Below are positions 55,182 to 64,000 of a DNA stretch of 64,000 nucleotides, piece by piece. Position numbers and translations under genes: made by a program. This DNA comes from Pseudomonadota bacterium. Its GTDB lineage: Bacteria; Desulfobacterota; Desulfobulbia; Desulfobulbales; JAGXFP01. The notes below the pieces were generated by a model. It worked only from the letters and a program-made list of their open reading frames with translations. It was not told where the DNA came from and made no database searches. The DNA is taken from contig JAHJAA010000079.1 of assembly GCA_018814305.1 (NCBI GenBank), positions 10,130 to 74,129 on the forward strand, read 5' to 3'. Position 1 is the stretch's first letter. Each line of letters starts with the position of its first letter.

Positions 55182-56102
55182 TCAGTATTTTTGATACGGT
55201 GGCATATTGGTTCGTTTGGCCATTTCCCGGACTATATCAAAATCTCCGTCCTTGATGTCAACATAGCCCTGGACTAGGGCTCTATCCAAAACCTTGATGA
55301 CTTCGCCATTCATTTCCACCGTATCTTCCGGGGTGATGTCCAGAACCACTTCCTTGAACTTTCGCGCCAGGGCCTCGTCGGTTTTCTGGGGTACCCCGAA
55401 ATTACAGTAAGGAATCGGCTCATTTTTTCCAAGGATGACAAAATCCTCCATGTCCACACGATTGTCGGCATCCATGGTCTCAAGATCATCGATGGGTATT
55501 GAACCTGCGTCGAATTTTCCAAACATCACACCATAGATGACCTTTTCATGTTTGAAGGATCCACCGGGGATGGTGTACATGGCCAGGTCCTGTTCCGGAT
55601 CAATCCCGTTTTGAAGCATTACGTCAACTTGAGCCATAAAGCCGGTGGGAGCAAGCATTGGCCCGAAGATCATGGTTTTTCCTTTGAGATCGCTCACCTG
55701 ACTCATGCCACTATCTTTACGAGCTAGAATGATACCCTGGGATTTAAAACCCAGAGATCCCTTCTGTTCAGCGGCCAGAACGTCTACTCCGTGATATCGG
55801 TTTAAAATGATATAGAGTAGTGAGTTGGTATGGGTGAAGTCGAGTTGGTCAATCTCACGGGTAAAGTTAATGGTATCGATGGGGATTGTTTCGAATTTGA
55901 CCCCCATCTTGTCCCCAACATATTTGGAAAAAGGTATAAAACGTTGCATTGTCTCATGTTCGCTATTGCAAATCATATATCCTATTTTGTAGGTGGGAAT
56001 ATCCTTGGCTGATGTCTTGGCAACAGGGGCCTTATCTGAAGAGGCCTTGCAGGCGGCCAGGAGGAGGAGAATGACGATTGCAGTAATTATTTTTTTAACC
56101 AT
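55182..56102 (-). CDS. PhnD-family (phosphonate-type) periplasmic binding-fold lipoprotein; orphan, with no ABC partners nearby
   Basis: Lipobox LLLAAC. YKIGYMIC...FTHTNSLLYI...GKTMIFG...GF.A... follows the PhnD/periplasmic-binding pattern. Confidence 0.65.
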   Translation of the reverse strand: MVKKIITAIVILLLLAACKASSDKAPVAKTSAKDIPTYKIGYMICNSEHETMQRFIPFSKYVGDKMGVKFETIPIDTINFTREIDQLDFTHTNSLLYIILNRYHGVDVLAAEQKGSLGFKSQGIILARKDSGMSQVSDLKGKTMIFGPMLAPTGFMAQVDVMLQNGIDPEQDLAMYTIPGGSFKHEKVIYGVMFGKFDAGSIPIDDLETMDADNRVDMEDFVILGKNEPIPYCNFGVPQKTDEALARKFKEVVLDITPEDTVEMNGEVIKVLDRALVQGYVDIKDGDFDIVREMAKRTNMPPYQKY

Positions 56103-56115
56103 GAGCGGGGCATCC

Positions 56116-56652
56116 TTAATCGAGGGTCTTTTTGTCTTGTAAGCGGGAGAGCGCCTGTTCGATTTCTTGTTTCTGGCTTTTCTTGACCGCAGGTGTTGTC
56201 TGGCTTGTTTTCAGATTGTCCAGGGCGGTTTGTAAAGCGACCATTGCCTCTGGGGGGTTGTTAACCTTCTCAAGGACCAGGCCGAGATGAAAAAAGACCA
56301 TCGGGTCGGAAGGATTTATTGTGATTGCCGCCTGGAGTGTTGATAAAGCCTCATCATATTCTTTCTGGCGGGTCTTGATAATCCCAAGGGCGTCAAGACT
56401 GTTAAAATTATCAGGATCCTGCCGGAGAATGGTCCGGAATTCCTGCTCCGCTTCTTTGAGCTTATTCTGGCGGAGGAGCGCCATTCCAAGAAGAGAGCGG
56501 GTCTTGGTATCTTCCGGTTTGAATTCAAGGAGAATTCTGTATTCCATCTCGGCCACCGAATCAGGCATATTGCCTTTTTCGATATGGGCCGAAACCGGAT
56601 GAACCGTGGACAGAATCAGGAGCGTGGTGAAGCTCAGTAACAGCCACCGCAT
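56116..56652 (-). CDS. TPR-repeat protein with signal peptide
   Basis: MRWLLLSFTTLLILSTVHPVSA signal peptide, then 3-4 TPR units (e.g. LGMALLRQNKLKEAEQEFRTILRQDPDN). The start may instead be 56673 or 56715. Confidence 0.7.
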   Translation of the reverse strand: MRWLLLSFTTLLILSTVHPVSAHIEKGNMPDSVAEMEYRILLEFKPEDTKTRSLLGMALLRQNKLKEAEQEFRTILRQDPDNFNSLDALGIIKTRQKEYDEALSTLQAAITINPSDPMVFFHLGLVLEKVNNPPEAMVALQTALDNLKTSQTTPAVKKSQKQEIEQALSRLQDKKTLD

Positions 56653-56674
56653 ATGTAGAAGGAGAGCAACCATT

Positions 56675-57274
56675 TTAGATGAATTTGCGGTCCTTGAGGA
56701 AATCTTTGGCCACATTTCTGGCCTTGGAACCGGATTTCACCTGTTTCATCATTGCTGTATAGGCGGCATTGTCAATGGCCCCTGAGAGTTTATTCAGGAC
56801 TCTCGGTAGCAGGGGGAAGTTGGTTAATACATCACGGCGGATCAGGGGAGCACTGACCGTAGGATTGTCTTTGGCATTCCGGAAGCCGAAGGGATTTAAC
56901 CAGATGACATCGCGCTCTTTTTCATAGGTGTCCTTGGCCAGGGTGTACTCCTGGTCTGGATCGGCCAATCGGGATTGCCCCAAAATCTCCATGGCATCGG
57001 CGGTGTCTTCAATGATAATGTCTACCCGAGCCTCTTCATCATCGGCGCGAAAGGCTTGGTAGAGGAGGGTGTTGTCAGAGAAGAAACGGGTCTTGACGTT
57101 GGTGCCGGTTCGCTCATTGATCAAGATAACCAGCATTTCAGCCATGAGCTGTTCTTCGGTATTTTCAAGTGCCCCAATATAGAGGATTCGTCCGACGCAA
57201 GCGTTGGAAAAGGTCGTCCAGACCGCCAGCAATAAAGCGGCGGTAAGCCAGATTTTCATGTTTTTGTGACGCAT
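56675..57274 (-). CDS. short OpuAC-like (glycine-betaine-type) periplasmic binding-fold protein; orphan
   Basis: Signal peptide, then ILYIGALENTEEQLMAEMLVILINERTG...LYQAF...VDIIIEDT...VIWLNPFGFRN...ARNVAKDFLKD, which follows the OpuAC pattern. At 199 aa it is shorter than usual. Confidence 0.55.
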   Translation of the reverse strand: MRHKNMKIWLTAALLLAVWTTFSNACVGRILYIGALENTEEQLMAEMLVILINERTGTNVKTRFFSDNTLLYQAFRADDEEARVDIIIEDTADAMEILGQSRLADPDQEYTLAKDTYEKERDVIWLNPFGFRNAKDNPTVSAPLIRRDVLTNFPLLPRVLNKLSGAIDNAAYTAMMKQVKSGSKARNVAKDFLKDRKFI

Positions 57275-57416: not shown

Positions 57417-58352
57417 TTACGACGAAAAAATGTCCAGCAATGAATGGTAAAGTGTATAGATACCGAGAAAGGTGATCAATAATGCACTGGCAATCCCGAG
57501 TTTACGGGCAAGGGCCAGGTTTTCGCCGATTTTTTGAGTCAATCGTCCCGCCTGTGACAGGACGACGCCGATGGTCATCATAACCAGGCCCAGGCCCAGG
57601 CTGAAAAACAAGGTCACTGTGAGACCCTGACCGATCCGGCCAGCGCCGATGGCGGCCAAAAGGGCGGCAATGGCCGGTGGACAGGGCACGATGCCTCCGG
57701 AAACTCCGAGCAGGGTGAGGCGCCATAAATTAAGGGTCCCGTCCGGGGCAAAGGCCTCCTCCGGTGAGTGGTGTTGGTGCCCATGGTTTGAATCGTGGTC
57801 GTGGTGGTCATTGTGCTCGGCGTGGGTATGGGGCGAGGGCGCATGATGGTGATCATCATGGCTGTGATTATGGGTGGCATGATCGTGATCGTGGACTTGA
57901 TCGGCGGGCCCATGGTCGTGATGCTCGTGGGTGTGGGTTGCAGGGCCATGATCGTGGTGGTCATGATCGTGAACGGAGGTCTCATTTCCATGGGCATGAT
58001 GCCCTTCGTCTTTACAAAAAAAGTGAAAATGGGTGTGGTTATGTCCACTGAGCCGTTCACGGAGCATCCATATACCCACTCCCAGAATCAGCAGCGAGGA
58101 AAAGAGACCCAACCAGGTATGCATCTGGTCGTCAGTAAAGGAACCGGCCAAAGCCTTGGCGATAAGCCCGAGCAGTATGACACTGAAGGTGTGGGTGAAA
58201 GTGACGATAAATCCAAGAATGATGCCGTCGATGGCACGCCCCCTGGTGCCAATCATATAGGCAGCAATGATTGATTTACCATGGCCTGGTTCAAAGGCAT
58301 GCAGCGCCCCCAGTGCTGTGGCTCCAAAGTACAGCATCAGATCGGATTCCAT
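57417..58352 (-). CDS. NicO/RcnA-like nickel/cobalt transporter with giant His-rich loop
   Basis: LHAFEPGHGKS signature in TM1 and 6 TM segments. The central loop has about 36 His in about 93 residues. ATG 58352 is 1 nt after the upstream TGA. Confidence 0.8.
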   Translation of the reverse strand: MESDLMLYFGATALGALHAFEPGHGKSIIAAYMIGTRGRAIDGIILGFIVTFTHTFSVILLGLIAKALAGSFTDDQMHTWLGLFSSLLILGVGIWMLRERLSGHNHTHFHFFCKDEGHHAHGNETSVHDHDHHDHGPATHTHEHHDHGPADQVHDHDHATHNHSHDDHHHAPSPHTHAEHNDHHDHDSNHGHQHHSPEEAFAPDGTLNLWRLTLLGVSGGIVPCPPAIAALLAAIGAGRIGQGLTVTLFFSLGLGLVMMTIGVVLSQAGRLTQKIGENLALARKLGIASALLITFLGIYTLYHSLLDIFSS

Positions 58353-58353
58353 A

Positions 58354-59832
58354 TCAGTTCTTCTCCTTGGCCGTGAAGGCTGGACAGCGCCGGTCACTGT
58401 TTTGCAGCGGACAGGTCGGTGAAAACACTCCCGCTAATTGCGAATGATCTCTTTGCCAGAGACGTGCCTTTGCGATCACCTGATCAGTGATCTGAGGGGC
58501 AATGCCGATGTGTCGGCTTGGGTCAATGGCCTCTTGAATTGATTCCTGGCTGAAATGTTGGTTTAAAATTTCATGGTCAACCAGAAGGTCGAGTAATGGC
58601 TTGCCGCTCTCCCGGGAGGCCATTGAGGCATCATAAAGAAGCTGATGGGCGGCCTGTTTGCCGATTTTATCCCCGAAAAGGAACATTAAGGCCTCGGTTG
58701 AGATGAGGCAAGCAGAGGCCGTTAGATTTCGGCGGATCCGGTCAGGGCGAACAACCAACCCCTGCAGGATGTTTTTCATGAGAGATAATGCCCCGCAGGT
58801 GTAGAGGGAGGCATCAACCAAGGCAGCCCATTCCAGTCGGACTGCCCGGTAATCCCGTTCATGTTCGTTGATCAGTCCCTCGAAGCCAAGAGATGTGCTG
58901 GCCTTAACTAATCGGGCCAATACCACGACCTGTTCACAGAGCTCCGGGTTTCGCTTATGGGGCATGGTCGTACTGCCAATTTTCCCCATATGAAAGGGTT
59001 CTTCAAGCTCACCCGTTTCATCCTTGGCCAACTGGCAGATCTCATTGGCTATTTTAGCCAGGGTTCCGGTCATCATGGCCATTAAGGATAAAAATTCAGC
59101 CCCCCTGTCGCGAGCGGTATGCCAGGCAGTGGTTGGTTGAATGAGGCCGAGGCGTGAAGAAAAAAGCGCCAGGAGCTCCAGTTCCCGGTCTCCGAAGGCC
59201 GCCATGGTGCCAACTCCGCCGAAGAGCTGGCTGGCCGGGACCCGGTTTTCACTTTCCTGAAGTCGCTCGGTATGCCGTAGGATTTCGTCGAGCCAGATGG
59301 CCATTTTGAGGCCCATGGTGGTGGGGAGTGCGTGTTGACCATGGGTTCGACCGATGATCACCAGATCTTTATGTTCTGCGGCAAGTCTGATCAGTTCCGA
59401 GATAATTTGGTCGAGATCTCTCTTGAAAATTTGAAAAATCTCTTTGAGTTCCATGGACTGGGCCGTGTCCTGGATATCCTGGGTGGTGGCGCCGTAATGG
59501 ATAAATCGTGAGGCCTCCGGGCCTGAAACCCGCTGCCATTCGTTGAGTAAGGGAATCAGAGAATGGCCGGTTTCAGCTATGCCTTGTTTGATGGCATCAC
59601 TATCAAGGCAATTTAAATTGGCGGTTTCTTCGAGACGGGCCGCAGCCTCTACCGGGATCATCCCAAGTTTCGCCTGGCTATTTGCCAGAGCAACCTCAAC
59701 ATCCAGCCAGCGCTGCAATCGGCGGAAGTCGCAGAACACCCGTCTCGCCTCGGCGGTGGTGTATCCCTGGCTGTAAAAATGGGAATCAGTTATGTGGCTG
59801 CTTGGGCTATGTGTACATTCCATAATCAACAC
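58354..59832 (-). CDS. fumarase/aspartase-superfamily lyase (adenylosuccinate lyase / 3-carboxymuconate cycloisomerase-like), paralogue B
   Basis: HYGATTQDIQDT, GRTHGQHALPTT and GSTTMPHKRNPE signature loops. The start may be ATG 59823. Confidence 0.8.
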   Translation of the reverse strand: MLIMECTHSPSSHITDSHFYSQGYTTAEARRVFCDFRRLQRWLDVEVALANSQAKLGMIPVEAAARLEETANLNCLDSDAIKQGIAETGHSLIPLLNEWQRVSGPEASRFIHYGATTQDIQDTAQSMELKEIFQIFKRDLDQIISELIRLAAEHKDLVIIGRTHGQHALPTTMGLKMAIWLDEILRHTERLQESENRVPASQLFGGVGTMAAFGDRELELLALFSSRLGLIQPTTAWHTARDRGAEFLSLMAMMTGTLAKIANEICQLAKDETGELEEPFHMGKIGSTTMPHKRNPELCEQVVVLARLVKASTSLGFEGLINEHERDYRAVRLEWAALVDASLYTCGALSLMKNILQGLVVRPDRIRRNLTASACLISTEALMFLFGDKIGKQAAHQLLYDASMASRESGKPLLDLLVDHEILNQHFSQESIQEAIDPSRHIGIAPQITDQVIAKARLWQRDHSQLAGVFSPTCPLQNSDRRCPAFTAKEKN

Positions 59833-61205
59833 AGTACTTCCGGGTCGGTTTCTCGTTGGCGACTGACCTCATCTAAGAGGTCTCTGATGATTTCCTTGAC
59901 CAGACCAAGATATTTTTCCGGATGGTCCAGAAAGGCCAGATCCTCTTTCCGAAGAAGGCTGGAGGTTTCCGAGTCTTGAAGAATTACATTTTTTAAGGAT
60001 TTTTCAGAGGTGACGGCCTGATCGATCAGGTGGTGCAGTTTTTCCTGGGCCCTCATTTTCCCCATGTCCGGACCGAGTCGGAAAAGCAACCATTCTGAAA
60101 GAACCATGTCGCCATACATTTTGAGGTTCTGAAGCATACGGTTTGGGCGAACCTCAAGATTTGACATAATCTCCTTACTATAATAACAGGCAGTGCCAGT
60201 GTAAATAGCGATTTGCGGAATGGCCAGCCATTCAGACCAGAGTGAACGGCCGTCCCGCTCATGTTCATGGACCATGGCTTCGATGACGGTGAGATTAAGG
60301 GCCCTGACTTGTCGGGCCATAACGGCAATCCGTTGGCTGATTACCGGATTCCTCTTATGGGGCATGGTGCTGCTACTGACCGCCCCGGTCGGGGCCGGTT
60401 CACATATTTCACCGGTTTCGGTTTTGCCCAGTTCAAAAACCTCATTGGCGATTTTTTCCAGGGTCGCGGTCACCAGGGCCATCCACGATGAAGTCTCGGC
60501 AATGATGTCTCGGGAGGTATGCCAGGTAATGGTAGCTGGTCGGAGGCCAAGTTTTTTTAAAGTGCGCTCGGCAACCTCTCTCCCCTGATCCCCCAAAGCG
60601 GCCATACTGCCGACCGCCCCGGAGAGTTGTCCGGTCAAGAGGCGGGGGACAATGTTTTTCAGTCGCTCAAGATGTCGGCGGATTTCACCCAGCCAAACTG
60701 AGCACTTAAATCCAAAGGTGATGGGAAGGGCCTGCTGTCCATGGGTTCGGGCGATCATCGGCGTGTCGGCATATCGGGAGGCAAGTGCGAAAACCGCATC
60801 CTCCAGTCCCCGGAGATCCCGATAAATAATCTTTAATGCATCACGGAGTTCCATGATCTGGCCGGTATCAAGAACGTCCTGGGTGGTGGCGCCGTAATGG
60901 ACATATTCGCCAGCGCCATTATCACAGGCCAGACGTAAGGACTTGATTAACGGCATTAAGGAATTGCGGCCGGTTCGATACGCTTCGGCCATGGCGGTAA
61001 AATCCATTGCGTCGATGGTTGCCCGGCGTTTGATTTCCTGGGCGGCCTCCGAGGGAATGATCCCAAGTTCTCCCTGGGTCTCGGCCAGTGCCGCTTCAAA
61101 GGCAAGCCACCTGGAAAATCTCTTTTTTTCGCTGAAAACGGCTTTTAAATCAGGGGTTGAAAAGATATCCGCCTGGATTTCAAAGTCAAAAGGGTGGGAG
61201 ACCAT
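59826..61205 (-). CDS. fumarase/aspartase-superfamily lyase (adenylosuccinate lyase-like), paralogue A
   Basis: HYGATTQDVLDT, ARTHGQQALPIT and SSSTMPHKRNPV signature loops. Roughly 40-50% identical to paralogue B by eye. Confidence 0.8.
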   Translation of the reverse strand: MVSHPFDFEIQADIFSTPDLKAVFSEKKRFSRWLAFEAALAETQGELGIIPSEAAQEIKRRATIDAMDFTAMAEAYRTGRNSLMPLIKSLRLACDNGAGEYVHYGATTQDVLDTGQIMELRDALKIIYRDLRGLEDAVFALASRYADTPMIARTHGQQALPITFGFKCSVWLGEIRRHLERLKNIVPRLLTGQLSGAVGSMAALGDQGREVAERTLKKLGLRPATITWHTSRDIIAETSSWMALVTATLEKIANEVFELGKTETGEICEPAPTGAVSSSTMPHKRNPVISQRIAVMARQVRALNLTVIEAMVHEHERDGRSLWSEWLAIPQIAIYTGTACYYSKEIMSNLEVRPNRMLQNLKMYGDMVLSEWLLFRLGPDMGKMRAQEKLHHLIDQAVTSEKSLKNVILQDSETSSLLRKEDLAFLDHPEKYLGLVKEIIRDLLDEVSRQRETDPEVLC

Positions 61206-61233
61206 GGTGTGTCCGTTTCCTGAGTTGGATCAA

Positions 61234-62409
61234 TTAAAAAGGGCGCCCATAAGGCCTGGTGCCCGGTTGGGGGCGGAAATTACCGCATAAACCGAGGGCG
61301 GCTTCGGTGGGGGAACTTTGATCGGCCCGGCTTTTCTCCATAACAGTCTGGACCATGAGCGTCATCCGGTCACGGACATGGTCCAGGACCTCTCGGGGGG
61401 AGGGATGTTCATCGGGGCCGTAGAGGCCTTCCATGGAAAGTGACCCACCGCAACCGGCTAGGAAATCGGGCAAAACGGGGATCCGGCGCTCAAAGAGGAT
61501 GTCGGCAGACGATTGAGGTACCGCGAGATTTGCCCCTGGAACCACTCCCTTGGCCGGCAGTTTTTCCGCCGCTTCTGGGGGAATGGTATTTTCCAGAGCT
61601 ACTGGAATCATTAAGTCACAGTCGATGTTCAGGATCTCATTTCTATCCCTCATAATGAGTTCTGTGGAGCCTGGGGGGGGAAGCAGGGTCGTCTGTTGAT
61701 CAAGGAGCCAGCTAATGGAGATTCCGTGGTCGGATGTCGTTGTATAGCATTTTTCCGCATCGGCGATGGCAACGATGCGTGCTCCGACCTCACGGAGACC
61801 GAAGAGCGCCGCCTTGGCCAAGGCCCCAAATCCTTGCATGGCAATTGTTGCCCCTTTCCGGGGAATGGCAAGATCATCCAGGAGGCCCAGGGCGGCGGCA
61901 GAAACCCCATATCCGGCCCGGAGTCGCCCCAGAGGAATACCCTGGATCTCTTCTGAAAGTACGCTGGAGCGTTTGAGGAAATAATCGTCATCCCAGCCTT
62001 GGGCTGCAGCGATGGACATCTTGACCGAAGGGAGCCCTATGGTGCGGGAGGCATTTTCCAGTTCGGTCATATCGATATTTAGATCTGGGCCCATGGAGTA
62101 GATTGTTTTGATATACGGGGCGATGGCGGCCATGAACCTCTGCACTGCTTGCTGTTTGCCGGGGGTGGTTGGGTCATAGCTAATGCCGCATTTGGCGCCG
62201 TCAACTCGGAGTCCGGCGATTCGCATTTTGCGGGTCATGTTTTTGGCCATCCGGATCAAGTGCTCCCGGGTCAATCCCGGTTGAACCCGCATACCTCCTG
62301 CACAAATTCGATGCTCAAGCCGGTCAATAACCAGCCACCCTTGAAAATTTTCAAAGTGGTCGTAGTAATCGATGATCAGGGCTGGTGGGGTCTCGTCAAG
62401 TTGGGTCAT
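61234..62409 (-). CDS. divergent Glu/Leu/Phe/Val-dehydrogenase-family protein
   Basis: The N-terminal catalytic-domain pattern GGMRV...VDGAKCGISYDP resembles the GG(G/A)KGG box. The Rossmann motif is IAMQGFGALAKAA. The first conserved Lys box (xKGG[IV]R) reads CAGGMRV instead. Confidence 0.7.
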   Translation of the reverse strand: MTQLDETPPALIIDYYDHFENFQGWLVIDRLEHRICAGGMRVQPGLTREHLIRMAKNMTRKMRIAGLRVDGAKCGISYDPTTPGKQQAVQRFMAAIAPYIKTIYSMGPDLNIDMTELENASRTIGLPSVKMSIAAAQGWDDDYFLKRSSVLSEEIQGIPLGRLRAGYGVSAAALGLLDDLAIPRKGATIAMQGFGALAKAALFGLREVGARIVAIADAEKCYTTTSDHGISISWLLDQQTTLLPPPGSTELIMRDRNEILNIDCDLMIPVALENTIPPEAAEKLPAKGVVPGANLAVPQSSADILFERRIPVLPDFLAGCGGSLSMEGLYGPDEHPSPREVLDHVRDRMTLMVQTVMEKSRADQSSPTEAALGLCGNFRPQPGTRPYGRPF

Positions 62410-63359
62410 GGGGTTATTCTCCGCACACCGGCTGTGGGAATGGAATGCTCAGCAAAGGGCTGGATGATTGCCGTCCCTAGTTCCGGGTCCCGGTGTTGAT
62501 CAAAAATAGTTGATTCAATTTCTGCCGGTACCGTAGAGCCCCAGAAATTACCGCTGACTTCGATATCCCAAAGTTGTTTGGTGCCAAGATTAAGATTATA
62601 CCATTGATTGTCGGTAAGGTCATTGTTGGTGATCCGCAACCTGCCGGTGTTCCATGGGCTGCCGCTTCGATCCGGTTCAAAAAAATCGGTAATATTCTGC
62701 CCGGAAGGGACCAGGAAAATCCCCAATCGGTTTTGGAAAATCTTATTGTAGTTGATCAGGACCGGTCCTTCCATTCGGGTAAAGCGGATTGCCACGTCAT
62801 TCTGGAAAAATTCATTATGTTCCAGATCAAGGTCGGCCCGGCCAAAGCGGATTCCTTCATGATTATTATGAAAAAGTGAGTCGGTCACGGTTGCGGTGGA
62901 GAATTGGACTTGCAGACCGCTGAAACCGTGCTGAAATTCGCAGTAGCGGATACGATTGAAGCTTCCCGAGGTAAAGAGTAAGAGATAGGACCAGTCCTTG
63001 GGGGCAGGGCTATTTTCGGCTGATGCGAATCGGATCATTTGTTCGGGACTTCCTTCAGCGAGAATCCGACCCAAGACCCGGATCTCCGAGTCGCCGATCC
63101 CGTCATGGTTTTCGTCAATTTTTTTAAAGCTGACCTGGGTCCCGGGGCTGATCGTTAGTGTTGTGGCTCGTCCGACCACAATGACCCCTTCAATGGTGAT
63201 GTCTCCGGCCCAAGTGGTGTCCTGGCGGAGGACCTGACTCTTGAGAAATTTGCCCTTGGCCAGTACAGGGGCAGGGTGAATGAAAAGCAGAATAAGCGTA
63301 AGCCAGAAGAGGCCGGTGGCTCGAAAACATTGGCGATGTTTCGCTAGAGGTATCAGCAT
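62406..63359 (-). CDS. secreted right-handed parallel beta-helix repeat protein (NosD-like fold)
   Basis: Signal peptide LFWLTLILLFIHPAPVLA. Repeated beta-helix rungs include FHNNHEGIRFG, FFQNDVAIRFT, IFQNRLGIFLV and ITNNDLTDNQWYNLNL. Its TGA overlaps the next ATG (ATGA 62406-62409). Start placed at ATG 63359. Confidence 0.65.
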   Translation of the reverse strand: MLIPLAKHRQCFRATGLFWLTLILLFIHPAPVLAKGKFLKSQVLRQDTTWAGDITIEGVIVVGRATTLTISPGTQVSFKKIDENHDGIGDSEIRVLGRILAEGSPEQMIRFASAENSPAPKDWSYLLLFTSGSFNRIRYCEFQHGFSGLQVQFSTATVTDSLFHNNHEGIRFGRADLDLEHNEFFQNDVAIRFTRMEGPVLINYNKIFQNRLGIFLVPSGQNITDFFEPDRSGSPWNTGRLRITNNDLTDNQWYNLNLGTKQLWDIEVSGNFWGSTVPAEIESTIFDQHRDPELGTAIIQPFAEHSIPTAGVRRITP

Positions 63360-63363
63360 CACC

Positions 63364-64000
63364 TTACTCCTTGAGCCGTTGGGTGAGACCCGAGGCCGGC
63401 ATGATCGGCACAACCGTCAGGTTGATATTCTTGCGATGTTCACCGGCGTTTACGGTCACGCTGTGGTTCTGGTTGCCTTCATAGAGCCCGTATAATTCGT
63501 CGCGGTCGGGAGCGGCGCCTACCTTGTCGCGGGCGACCAGATAGTAACGGCCCCCTTGGGCAAGGTCGATATTGAAGGCCCCTGCGCTATCGGTCCGTGA
63601 CATGGCTGGGGAAATCAACCTGAGGACGTGCATCTGGAAGAGATTCAGGCCCATGGAAGGGTAGGCTGTAACGAAAATGTTCGCCAGGCCCCGACCCTCA
63701 AGGTCGGTCACGGTGCCGCTGATGGTCGAGAGCGCTTGAGAGGTGGGTTGCTGCGATGTTTCCGGCTGCAGGTCCCAGAGCGAGGCCTGTCTTCTGGTCT
63801 CATGTTTTCGTCCCTGGGGATTGGCCTCATCGTCATCTAAGAAGGAGAGGAGATTGTCTCTGGGGTAGCACTCCATTTTGATTTCACAGAGTTGGTCCGA
63901 GACCACTTTGATGGGATTGGCTGAGGTATAACAAAAGAGATCTCCCTGCATGACCGGTCCGATCCCTCGCGCAGTTTTTTTTCGTCGGGCCACGACAACG
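63364..64000 (-). CDS. protein with C-terminal carboxypeptidase-regulatory-like (CarboxypepD_reg) domain; 5' end may lie outside the window
   Basis: ISGTVTDLEGRGLANIFVTAY...DSAGAFNIDLAQGGRYYLVA fits the domain. There is no in-frame stop between 63993 and the window edge. Confidence 0.5.
   Translation of the reverse strand, partial: VVVARRKKTARGIGPVMQGDLFCYTSANPIKVVSDQLCEIKMECYPRDNLLSFLDDDEANPQGRKHETRRQASLWDLQPETSQQPTSQALSTISGTVTDLEGRGLANIFVTAYPSMGLNLFQMHVLRLISPAMSRTDSAGAFNIDLAQGGRYYLVARDKVGAAPDRDELYGLYEGNQNHSVTVNAGEHRKNINLTVVPIMPASGLTQRLKE

Follow-up and report, generated by a model that had tools for sequence, protein, structure and literature searches.

What a bacterium might gain by coupling an amino-acid dehydrogenase and two lyases to a metal permease is the question raised by a stretch of 64,000 nucleotides from a member of the Desulfobulbales (contig JAHJAA010000079.1 of assembly GCA_018814305.1, positions 10,130 to 74,129; hereafter the window). 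Four genes of this kind are packed on its minus strand. A first-pass annotation of the sequence had remarked that no described pathway was known to have this composition, and our literature search likewise found no publication describing the cluster or such a pathway. From a comparison with other genomes we conclude that the wider cluster to which the four genes belong probably serves to make a small molecule that contains sulfur and to handle periplasmic nickel. The four genes, with positions in window coordinates and the labels used below, are the following.

61234 to 62409, minus strand: DH, an amino-acid dehydrogenase of the ELFV family
59826 to 61205, minus strand: LyA, a lyase of the aspartase/fumarase superfamily, CMLE/Tad1-like branch
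58354 to 59832, minus strand: LyB, a lyase of the aspartase/fumarase superfamily, paralogue of LyA
57417 to 58352, minus strand: NicO, a NicO/RcnA-type nickel(/cobalt) permease; ATG start, with the listed open reading frame extending to a GTG at 58397

All four genes and their junctions were found as first described, and the junctions can be read directly from the sequence. DH and the NosD-like gene upstream of it overlap by ATGA (62406 to 62409), and 28 nt separate DH from LyA. The TGA of LyA (59826 to 59828) either overlaps a GTG start of LyB at 59832 or stands 2 nt ahead of an ATG at 59823, and a single nucleotide lies between the LyB TGA (58354 to 58356) and the permease ATG (58352). The original family assignments agree with Pfam and NCBIfam, which returned Lyase_1 with ADSL_C for both lyases, ELFV_dehydrog_N with ELFV_dehydrog for DH, and NicO for the permease. 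A scan for promoters and terminators found no convincing internal terminator and nothing decisive. The tight packing is not due to chance, because the identical gene order was found again in dozens of independent genomes.

For this comparison, the proteins encoded in the window were mapped onto 66 genome loci that had been collected via a dehydrogenase alignment. The counts given below cover about 60 Thermodesulfobacteriota-type loci, and their denominators are the evaluable loci. The proposed four-gene unit proved to be real and to be conserved as a unit in other genomes, but it is only the middle of a cluster of about ten genes, which we found in about 60 Desulfobulbales-type loci including every cable bacterium sampled. 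A gene for a protein labelled X183 was present in 46 of 50 loci, and either X183 or the NosD-like gene stood immediately upstream of DH in 54 of 55 (the NosD-like gene in 25/55). LyA neighboured DH in 32 of 44 loci, LyB was found in 31 of 41, and the genes for periplasmic proteins in 26 of the 32 long loci.

Two arrangements of the cluster occur. Arrangement A, that of the window clade, runs X183, CarboxypepD_reg-like (about 400 amino acids), NosD-like, DH, LyA, LyB, NicO, OpuAC-like, TPR and PhnD-like. Arrangement B, that of the cable bacteria and their relatives, starts with OpuAC-like, NicO (in some cases), TPR, PhnD-like, NosD-like, a transmembrane/TPR gene and YedE, and continues with a DUF3343 selenium/sulfur carrier, NAD(P)HX-dehydratase-like, ThiS, X183, DH, LyA, LyB and ThiF. 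Both keep the enzyme genes together with the nickel and periplasmic genes. The cluster consists of two separable modules, an enzyme core and a nickel/periplasmic module, that were joined by Desulfobulbales; they are separable because the order NicO, NosD, TPR, NosD occurs in Nitrospirota without the enzyme core. The window stops within the CarboxypepD_reg-like gene, and X183, the most diagnostic gene of the cluster, is therefore expected, by synteny, just past base 64,000. The flanks of the cluster in a close relative (locus L067) match those in the window, with ComEA-like, CimA and aspartokinase genes.

X183 was not detected by any Pfam model. Its invariant residues, E37, H124-x-H126 and D137, form the pattern of a JAMM zinc site, and a profile comparison links it to the MPN structure 2kks (E 1.7e-7) and, with a weak score (E 0.07), to archaeal JAMM1. 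The top Foldseek matches of its AlphaFold2 model (pLDDT 92.8) are all MPN/JAMM proteins. Judged by this modelled fold, X183 is a JAMM/MPN+ protease, and in the relatives of the window it is genetically tied to the enzymes. With 76 clusters at E<=1e-10 among 1.84 billion representatives, the family is rare. Some members occur fused to ThiF (three architectures), to a methyltransferase or to a PCP domain. The family constitutes a new and distinct MPN+ subfamily. One fusion of X183 to ThiF, on a metagenome contig (L153; Logan SRR8925765), lies among at least eight radical-SAM genes and an asparagine-synthase-like gene, a cluster that may encode another pathway, leading to a different natural product with sulfur in it.

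A genome scan with X183, followed by mapping, revealed the contexts of the enzyme core. Fusobacterium necrophorum, the Firmicute Anaerosacchariphilus polymeriproducens and Acidihalobacter share the order ThiF, X183, LyB, DH, LyA, which in the first two is followed by a ThiS gene whose product ends in GG. A gammaproteobacterium has the same order minus DH (ThiF, NifS-like, X183, LyB, LyA, ThiS), and the order in Actinomycetota is DH, LyB, X183. In Marinobacter, X183, DH and LyB are followed by genes for a beta-propeller, a Prok-JAB protein, a ThiS::ThiF::rhodanese fusion, a methyltransferase and an MFS protein. This core belongs to a metal-resistance island that also encodes two MerR regulators of the metal type, a multicopper oxidase and ArsR, which is a link of the enzyme core to metals independent of that in Desulfobulbales. 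The neighbours of the core in relatives thus include ThiS-like proteins ending in GG, ThiF-rhodanese proteins and adjacent NifS-like desulfurases, and a CysE-like hexapeptide acyltransferase adjoins it in two hosts. YedE transporter and DUF3343 selenium/sulfur-carrier genes lie within the cluster in about 20 loci. The in-cluster transporter matches TIGR04112, 'YedE family putative selenium transporter', with 399 bits (cutoff 200), and its gene is followed by one for a PF11823 selenium/sulfur-carrier protein. More distant relatives of X183 are found in clusters of ThiF, X183, ThiS, a pyridoxal phosphate (PLP)-dependent lyase and an ATP-grasp ligase.

Both lyases belong to the aspartase/fumarase superfamily, with Lyase_1 (PF00206) scores of 158 bits for LyA and 148 bits for LyB. 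As had been noticed at the outset, they retain the catalytic loop intact (SSSTMPHKRNP in LyA, GSTTMPHKRNP in LyB; signature S-S/T-x-M-P-x-K-x-N, carrying the catalytic Ser). They had also been called moderately similar, old paralogues, and this was borne out because they are 38% identical without a gap across 437 residues. The lyase of loci with a single one, which are outliers, matches LyB better than LyA. The best NCBIfam model of both is NF006500, an uncharacterised ADSL-like subfamily, with scores below its curated cutoff (LyA 458, LyB 556, cutoff 626 bits). Second comes XcbD (NF052536; 441 and 470 bits, cutoff 600), the nearest model with demonstrated activity. The xcb neighbours (phosphosulfolactate synthase, XcbC, XcbE) were absent from the loci inspected. 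Against purB, LyA scores 304 bits (303.7; cutoff 326), whereas LyB reaches 332.2 bits and barely passes the TIGR00928 cutoff of 326.2. Both stay below the PcaB equivalogs (358 and 380 bits against 595 for NF006554, 264 and 301 against 356 for TIGR02426) and far below the ArgH equivalog.

Among solved structures, LyA matches CMLE (1q5n) with 288 bits, 3c8t with 279 and Tad1 with 277, versus 195 for ADSL. The corresponding values for LyB are 265 bits for 3c8t, 257 for CMLE and 244 for Tad1, versus 222 for ADSL. CMLE is PcaB, 3c8t is a 'fumarate lyase' structure and Tad1 is trans-aconitate decarboxylase; PcaB/CMLE and Tad1, which with 3c8t are the solved structures nearest to both lyases (244 to 288 bits), have non-nucleotide unsaturated polycarboxylates as substrates. 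Unlike in the PcaB and Tad1 systems, no beta-ketoadipate or itaconate genes lie nearby, and most hosts are anaerobes. A role in the beta-ketoadipate pathway was rejected, as no pca genes were found in any locus examined and the hosts are anaerobic.

DH shows both domains of its family (ELFV_dehydrog, PF00208, 79.5 bits; ELFV_dehydrog_N, PF02812, 40.7 bits), and hundreds of relatives exist at 50 to 63% identity. The carboxylate-binding Lys (K61), the catalytic Lys of the GG(G/A)K box 12 residues further on (K73) and the catalytic Asp (D109) align to the residues of glutamate dehydrogenase (GDH); they are invariant among 20 family members and correspond to K113, K125 and D165 of the Clostridium symbiosum enzyme. 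DH is set apart from glutamate dehydrogenase proper by its equivalog scores, which all fall far short (best 94 bits versus a cutoff of 620), and by the CAGGMR motif, which aligns to AKGGIR of Thermotoga maritima GDH with an Ala in place of Lys. This alignment agrees with the earlier observation that the first Lys box (CAGGMRV) is lost. We take the missing residue to be K89 in C. symbiosum GDH numbering, the Lys that binds the gamma-carboxylate and sets side-chain specificity, and not a catalytic one. With K61, K73 and D109 kept and Ala at the equivalent of K89, DH has the appearance of an active amino-acid dehydrogenase whose substrate is not glutamate.

The first-pass annotation had proposed a C-N chemistry of the aminopolycarboxylate type for these enzymes. 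Their association with ThiS, ThiF and a JAMM protease, together with the XcbD match, instead favours the formation of C-S (possibly C-Se) bonds. With moderate confidence we read the cluster as a sulfur-carrier-dependent pathway for a thiol ligand, joined to a periplasmic nickel module. In the cytoplasm, DH, LyA, LyB and X183, together with a ThiS/MoaD-type carrier and ThiF(-rhodanese), would attach sulfur to the skeleton of a small carboxylic acid or amino acid. The ELFV enzyme would interconvert a 2-oxo acid and an amino acid, one lyase would form an alpha,beta-unsaturated acid by beta-elimination, the other would add the sulfur nucleophile (the thiocarboxylate of the carrier) to it, and the JAMM protease would free the thiol product from the carrier. 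The second module, comprising NicO/RcnA and the TPR, OpuAC-like, PhnD-like, NosD-like and CarboxypepD_reg-like proteins, would bring Ni(II) into the periplasm and bind or assemble something there. In the joined form that Desulfobulbales have, the two modules would most likely yield a thiol(ate) ligand that meets nickel outside the cytoplasm.

Two groups of known systems serve as models for these steps. In coenzyme M synthesis of Xanthobacter autotrophicus, XcbC makes the unsaturated acid sulfoacrylate by elimination, and its paralogue XcbD adds cysteine to it (PMC9457059). LyA and LyB resemble this pair in being two tandem enzymes of the aspartase/fumarase superfamily, and the pair is a precedent for the installation of a thiol. 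Unlike XcbC/XcbD, both lyases resemble XcbD (below the 600-bit cutoff) and neither resembles XcbC (41 to 45 bits). Unlike the xcb locus, the cluster has no ComA/XcbB, XcbE (PLP) or XcbA neighbours and adds an ELFV dehydrogenase and a JAMM protease, and the sulfur donor would be a ThiS-type carrier and not free cysteine as for XcbD. The second group comprises CysO/CysM/Mec+ (cysteine), HcyS/HcyF/HcyD (homocysteine) and QbsC/D/E (thioquinolobactin), with which the core shares a carrier ending in GG, ThiF(-rhodanese) and a JAMM protease; all of them are, like the core, small portable cassettes. Their acceptors are formed by PLP enzymes or adenylating ligases, whereas here an ELFV dehydrogenase and CMLE/ADSL-like lyases would take this part, and unlike them the cassette is coupled to a putative nickel exporter and secreted binding proteins.

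The assignment of nickel to the second module starts from the permease. It matches NicO (PF03824) with 63.5 bits (cutoff 27.7), remains below the E. coli-type subfamily model NF007454 (139 versus 195 bits) and, like the RcnA proteins of cable bacteria and E. coli, has a central His-rich loop.

57768 to 58046, minus strand: His-rich loop of the permease, a dense region of about 36 His (41 His in the whole protein)

The loop lies inside the range of 33 to 53 His reported for RcnA of cable bacteria. Orthologues of the permease contain 11 to 50 His, and from these counts in non-cable RcnA it follows that the loop grew or shrank repeatedly. The best matches beyond its own clade are the RcnA proteins of Electrothrix and Electronema, with 48 to 56% identity. 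In a maximum-likelihood tree the NicO proteins of Desulfobulbales (and Nitrospirota) split from those of other phyla with a support of 93/99, and within this group cable-bacteria RcnA is monophyletic with a support of 100/95. On the evidence of these sequence comparisons, the window permease is orthologous to cable-bacteria RcnA. Hiralal et al. (2024; PMC11247825) had reported that, of the Desulfobulbales, only cable bacteria possess this RcnA with its expanded His loop. We found orthologues in many metagenome-assembled genomes (MAGs) of non-cable Desulfobulbales and in the isolates M19 and B35, often inside the cluster; the claim holds for the cultured genera and fails for these uncultured lineages. 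The initially noted link between the cassette and a His-rich nickel permease is real and recurrent, and in at least 17 assemblies NicO lies on a different contig while the DH cluster is present.

Desulfobacterota bacterium M19 carries the DH cluster without NicO (L032) and has NicO and TPR genes at a separate nickel locus (L079:3112-7899) in the order CbiM/NikM, PDGLE, CbiQ, ABC ATPase, NicO, TPR, with NikR on the opposite strand. That NicO and TPR lie among nickel genes speaks for a specificity for nickel and connects the TPR protein with this metal. Domain, His loop and this nickel-regulon context place the permease in the NicO/RcnA family, with nickel transport as its predicted activity. 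Beneath a NikR, the M19 locus thus brings an importer together with a permease of the RcnA type and a secreted TPR protein.

The remaining members of the second module are envelope proteins, encoded in the window as follows.

63364 to 64000, minus strand: CarboxypepD_reg-like secreted protein, C-terminal part of about 210 residues (CarboxypepD_reg E 2.5e-6); the gene leaves the window
62406 to 63413, minus strand: NosD-like periplasmic protein, a right-handed beta-helix with a hydrophobic signal at its N-terminus (NosD 37 bits, Beta_helix 36 bits)
56675 to 57274, minus strand: short OpuAC-like secreted binding-fold protein (OpuAC 41 bits, C-terminal part only)
56116 to 56715, minus strand: secreted TPR protein, partner of NicO (TPR families)
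55182 to 56102, minus strand: PhnD-like periplasmic oxyanion-binding lipoprotein (Phosphonate-bd 118 bits)

Full-length orthologues of the CarboxypepD_reg-like protein have 400 to 423 amino acids and are encoded at the same position in L067 and L069, with X183 next upstream in relatives. The OpuAC-like gene is syntenic in most long loci. Directly after its signal peptide the protein has the sequence Cys-Val-Gly-Arg-Ile-Leu, which is kept in the window and in Ca. Electronema and may serve for lipidation or provide a functional thiol. NicO and TPR genes are neighbours in M19, L076, L082, L083, L090, L094 and Nitrospirota. The identification of the TPR protein as magnetosome MamA was rejected as a generic TPR match (57 bits versus a cutoff of 200). 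The PhnD-like gene is not accompanied by a cognate ABC permease or ATPase; its product matches selenate-binding and TtrS sensor models weakly, and the orthologues in arrangement A are 55 to 83% identical.

The NosD-like protein is reminiscent of NosD in the NosDFY-NosL system for the Cu-S centre of N2O reductase, in that a beta-helix protein is encoded in one locus with a metal-handling membrane protein and sulfur genes. By this analogy, the context suggests the assembly of a periplasmic metal-sulfur centre. Unlike in NosDFY, the similarity to NosD is weak (37 bits) and the metal context is nickel and not copper, so that the likeness is functional only. A NosDFY-type copper assembly was rejected, as none of the loci contains NosF, NosY, NosL, NosZ or ABC components.

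Expression of the envelope proteins is documented in cable bacteria, for which the supplements of Plum-Jensen et al. (PMC13293266) contain a core-genome table of seven closed genomes and a proteome list. ADSL-family LyA, DH, X183 (as a hypothetical protein), the NAD(P)HX-dehydratase-like protein, DUF3343 and YedE are core in all seven, and so are the beta-helix, PhnD-like, TPR, OpuAC-like and SLC13 proteins. In the proteome, four secreted proteins are listed beside abundant proteins such as ribosomal proteins, DnaK and TolB, with iBAQ values of 3.8e7 (PhnD-like), 3.1e7 (OpuAC-like), 2.8e7 (NosD-like, Ca. Electronema aureum) and 9.9e6 (TPR).

A number of observations weigh against a thiol-ligand pathway joined to nickel handling. 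Gene content, synteny, the fold of X183, its fusions to ThiF, the nickel context of NicO and the expression of the secreted proteins in cable bacteria are shown, whereas the chemistry is proposed wholly by analogy with XcbC/XcbD and CysO/Mec+, and the nature of the product and its encounter with nickel are likewise inferred. In the window itself X183 is placed beyond the end by synteny, and a tblastn search with all accessory genes found no ThiS, ThiF or X183 in the 64 kb; the GG carrier and the ThiF-type E1 with rhodanese or desulfurase are those of relatives. A search for transcripts found the locus only in DNA runs, from one biofilm metagenome, and no riboswitches or other RNAs were found in the cluster region of the window or in seven representative loci. 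Neither module is constant. NicO lies inside the cluster in 13 of the 32 long loci and is absent from about half of them, and DH is missing from three loci with the order CarbKin-like, ThiS, X183, LyA, LyB, ThiF (L164, L168 and L171, from SEEP-SRB2 and other Thermodesulfobacteriota MAGs), so that it is dispensable in some lineages. Nitrospirota MAGs have the nickel module without the enzyme core. Conversely, the core occurs without any nickel module in Fusobacterium, Firmicutes and Actinomycetota, and its product therefore need not be a nickel ligand. Among the cable bacteria, DH, X183 and LyA are not on the list of highly expressed proteins, the cluster of Electrothrix is split into three pieces, and rcnA of Electrothrix and Electronema stands apart from it. 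Strain YB6 has the Ni-S cofactor and lacks rcnA (PMC12093952), although it does carry X183-DH.

The main rival to this thiol-ligand reading, which we consider unlikely but take seriously, is that the cassette makes a general thiol metabolite or cofactor, for example by an alternative route to a cysteine-like thio-amino acid, and that the nickel genes are neighbours through co-regulation or sulfur supply and not for the assembly of ligand and metal. It would account for the cassette standing alone in Fusobacterium, a Firmicute, Actinomycetota and a gammaproteobacterium, for the CysE-like acyltransferase next to it in two hosts, and for the PLP-dependent beta-eliminating lyases and ATP-grasp ligases beside distant X183 relatives. 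A general pathway should be more widespread, however, than the very rare X183 family, and classical cultured Desulfobulbales appear to be without the cluster in pattern-based scans. Moreover, the enzyme and nickel/periplasmic modules stay together in both arrangements, and the Marinobacter cassette is part of a metal-resistance island in which there is also an MFS exporter.

We regard as clearly improbable the interpretation proposed at first, in which C-N lyases and the dehydrogenase build or degrade an N-succinyl or aminopolycarboxylate (EDDS-like) metallophore for nickel or cobalt. C-N chemistry is the commonest in the superfamily, the signature loops of both lyases are intact, and the linkage to NicO is real. 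But the constant partners JAMM, ThiS, ThiF-rhodanese, NifS and YedE play no role in aminopolycarboxylate chemistry, the nearest relatives of the lyases are CMLE, Tad1 and XcbD and not ASL- or EDDS-lyase-like enzymes, and the cluster is without an ATP-dependent ligase that forms N-succinyl compounds.

Slightly less probable again is a pathway without sulfur, in which the ThiS-like protein serves as a covalent carrier or tag as in amino-group carrier systems of the LysW type or SAMPylation. ThiF would attach an amino-acid intermediate to its C-terminus, DH and the lyases would modify the intermediate while tethered, and X183 would release it. JAMM proteases do cut peptide and isopeptide bonds at the C-termini of ubiquitin-like proteins, X183 occurs in fusions with ThiF and, in one case, with a PCP carrier domain, and the cluster of the window clade is without sulfur genes. 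Rhodanese domains fused to ThiF, the adjacent NifS-like desulfurases and the chalcogen-handling YedE and DUF3343 genes in the cluster of about 20 loci speak for sulfur nonetheless. We hold it to be very unlikely that the chalcogen is selenium and that the cluster serves to make or handle a small molecule or centre with selenium in it. The TIGR04112 match of the transporter, the PF11823 selenium/sulfur carrier after it and the weak match of the PhnD-like protein to a putative selenate-binding model point that way; on the other side, no locus has a SelD or selenophosphate gene, ThiS, ThiF-rhodanese and NifS are typical of sulfur metabolism, YedE is not in the cluster of the window clade, and the function of TIGR04112 is itself putative.

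That the lyases are ordinary PurB, ArgH or PcaB enzymes in an incidental arrangement is hardly credible, even though LyB just attains the purB equivalog score (332.2 versus 326.2), since LyA falls below it, CMLE, Tad1 and 3c8t outscore the ADSL structures for both lyases, the PcaB and ArgH equivalogs are far from reached, different phyla keep the cassette together with JAMM and DH, and cable bacteria, taken as a proxy, have beside the cluster a separate core purB ('adenylosuccinate lyase' beside DUF4911) and argH (beside argG), which by this proxy answers the housekeeping alternative that the first-pass annotation had raised.

If the cluster does join a thiol ligand to nickel, the cable bacteria suggest a more specific use. 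Their periplasmic nickel-dithiolene fibres conduct electricity, and no gene for the synthesis is known (PMC13534509, PMC11247825); the conductor has been described as oligomeric nickel-ethenetetrathiolate, with no biosynthetic genes named (PMC13534509, and a preprint). All sampled cable bacteria carry the cluster, which makes it a testable candidate for how these unexplained nickel-sulfur wires are made. It unites the parts expected of such a pathway, namely a sulfur-carrier system, enzymes whose superfamily offers a precedent for making C-S bonds on unsaturated acids, the RcnA once held to be cable-specific and four abundant secreted proteins. We tentatively raise, as a rather doubtful proposal, that it is the biosynthesis and assembly system, or an evolutionary precursor of it, for the nickel bis(dithiolene)/nickel-ethenetetrathiolate of the fibres. 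ThiS/ThiF/JAMM with DH, LyA and LyB would build a sulfur-rich ligand, RcnA would supply nickel, and the secreted NosD-like, PhnD-like, OpuAC-like and TPR proteins would bind and assemble Ni-S units in the periplasm. Against this proposal, the cassette occurs in hosts without reason for nickel wires, the tie between NicO and the cluster is loose in cable bacteria, and the cluster is present in non-filamentous relatives. If it were true, periplasmic Ni-thiolate structures would predate cable bacteria and extend to non-cable Desulfobulbales including the organism of the window.

The core status in seven closed genomes gives a short and concrete list of candidate genes for the fibres. Independent of the fibres, the cluster is of value as a new sulfur-carrier-dependent cassette (ThiF, JAMM, lyase, dehydrogenase, lyase, ThiS) found again in several phyla, in hosts that are cultured and tractable, for its new MPN+ subfamily, and for an RcnA with expanded His loop that is no longer confined to cable bacteria.

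Some further observations concern the surroundings and the composition of the cluster. In the close relative of the window, a giant multihaem cytochrome gene (L067:1-6043, at least 2888 amino acids) lies immediately upstream. The nickel/beta-helix module of Nitrospirota (L091:194-9338, and L095) has the order CarboxypepD_reg-like, ResB-like, regulators, NicO, NosD-like, TPR, NosD-like and thus adjoins a ResB-like gene of cytochrome c biogenesis. Cable bacteria also have a YTD/DsrEFH-II cluster, whose locus is not the one described here. In Ca. Electronema (L048:8537-9404, L039:8620-9400), the ThiS slot between the NAD(P)HX-dehydratase-like gene and X183 holds other genes, by eye a putative HicB-like antitoxin and a DgkA-like membrane protein. 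The carrier must therefore be encoded elsewhere in this genus, and a ThiS/ThiF pair exists in the core genome.

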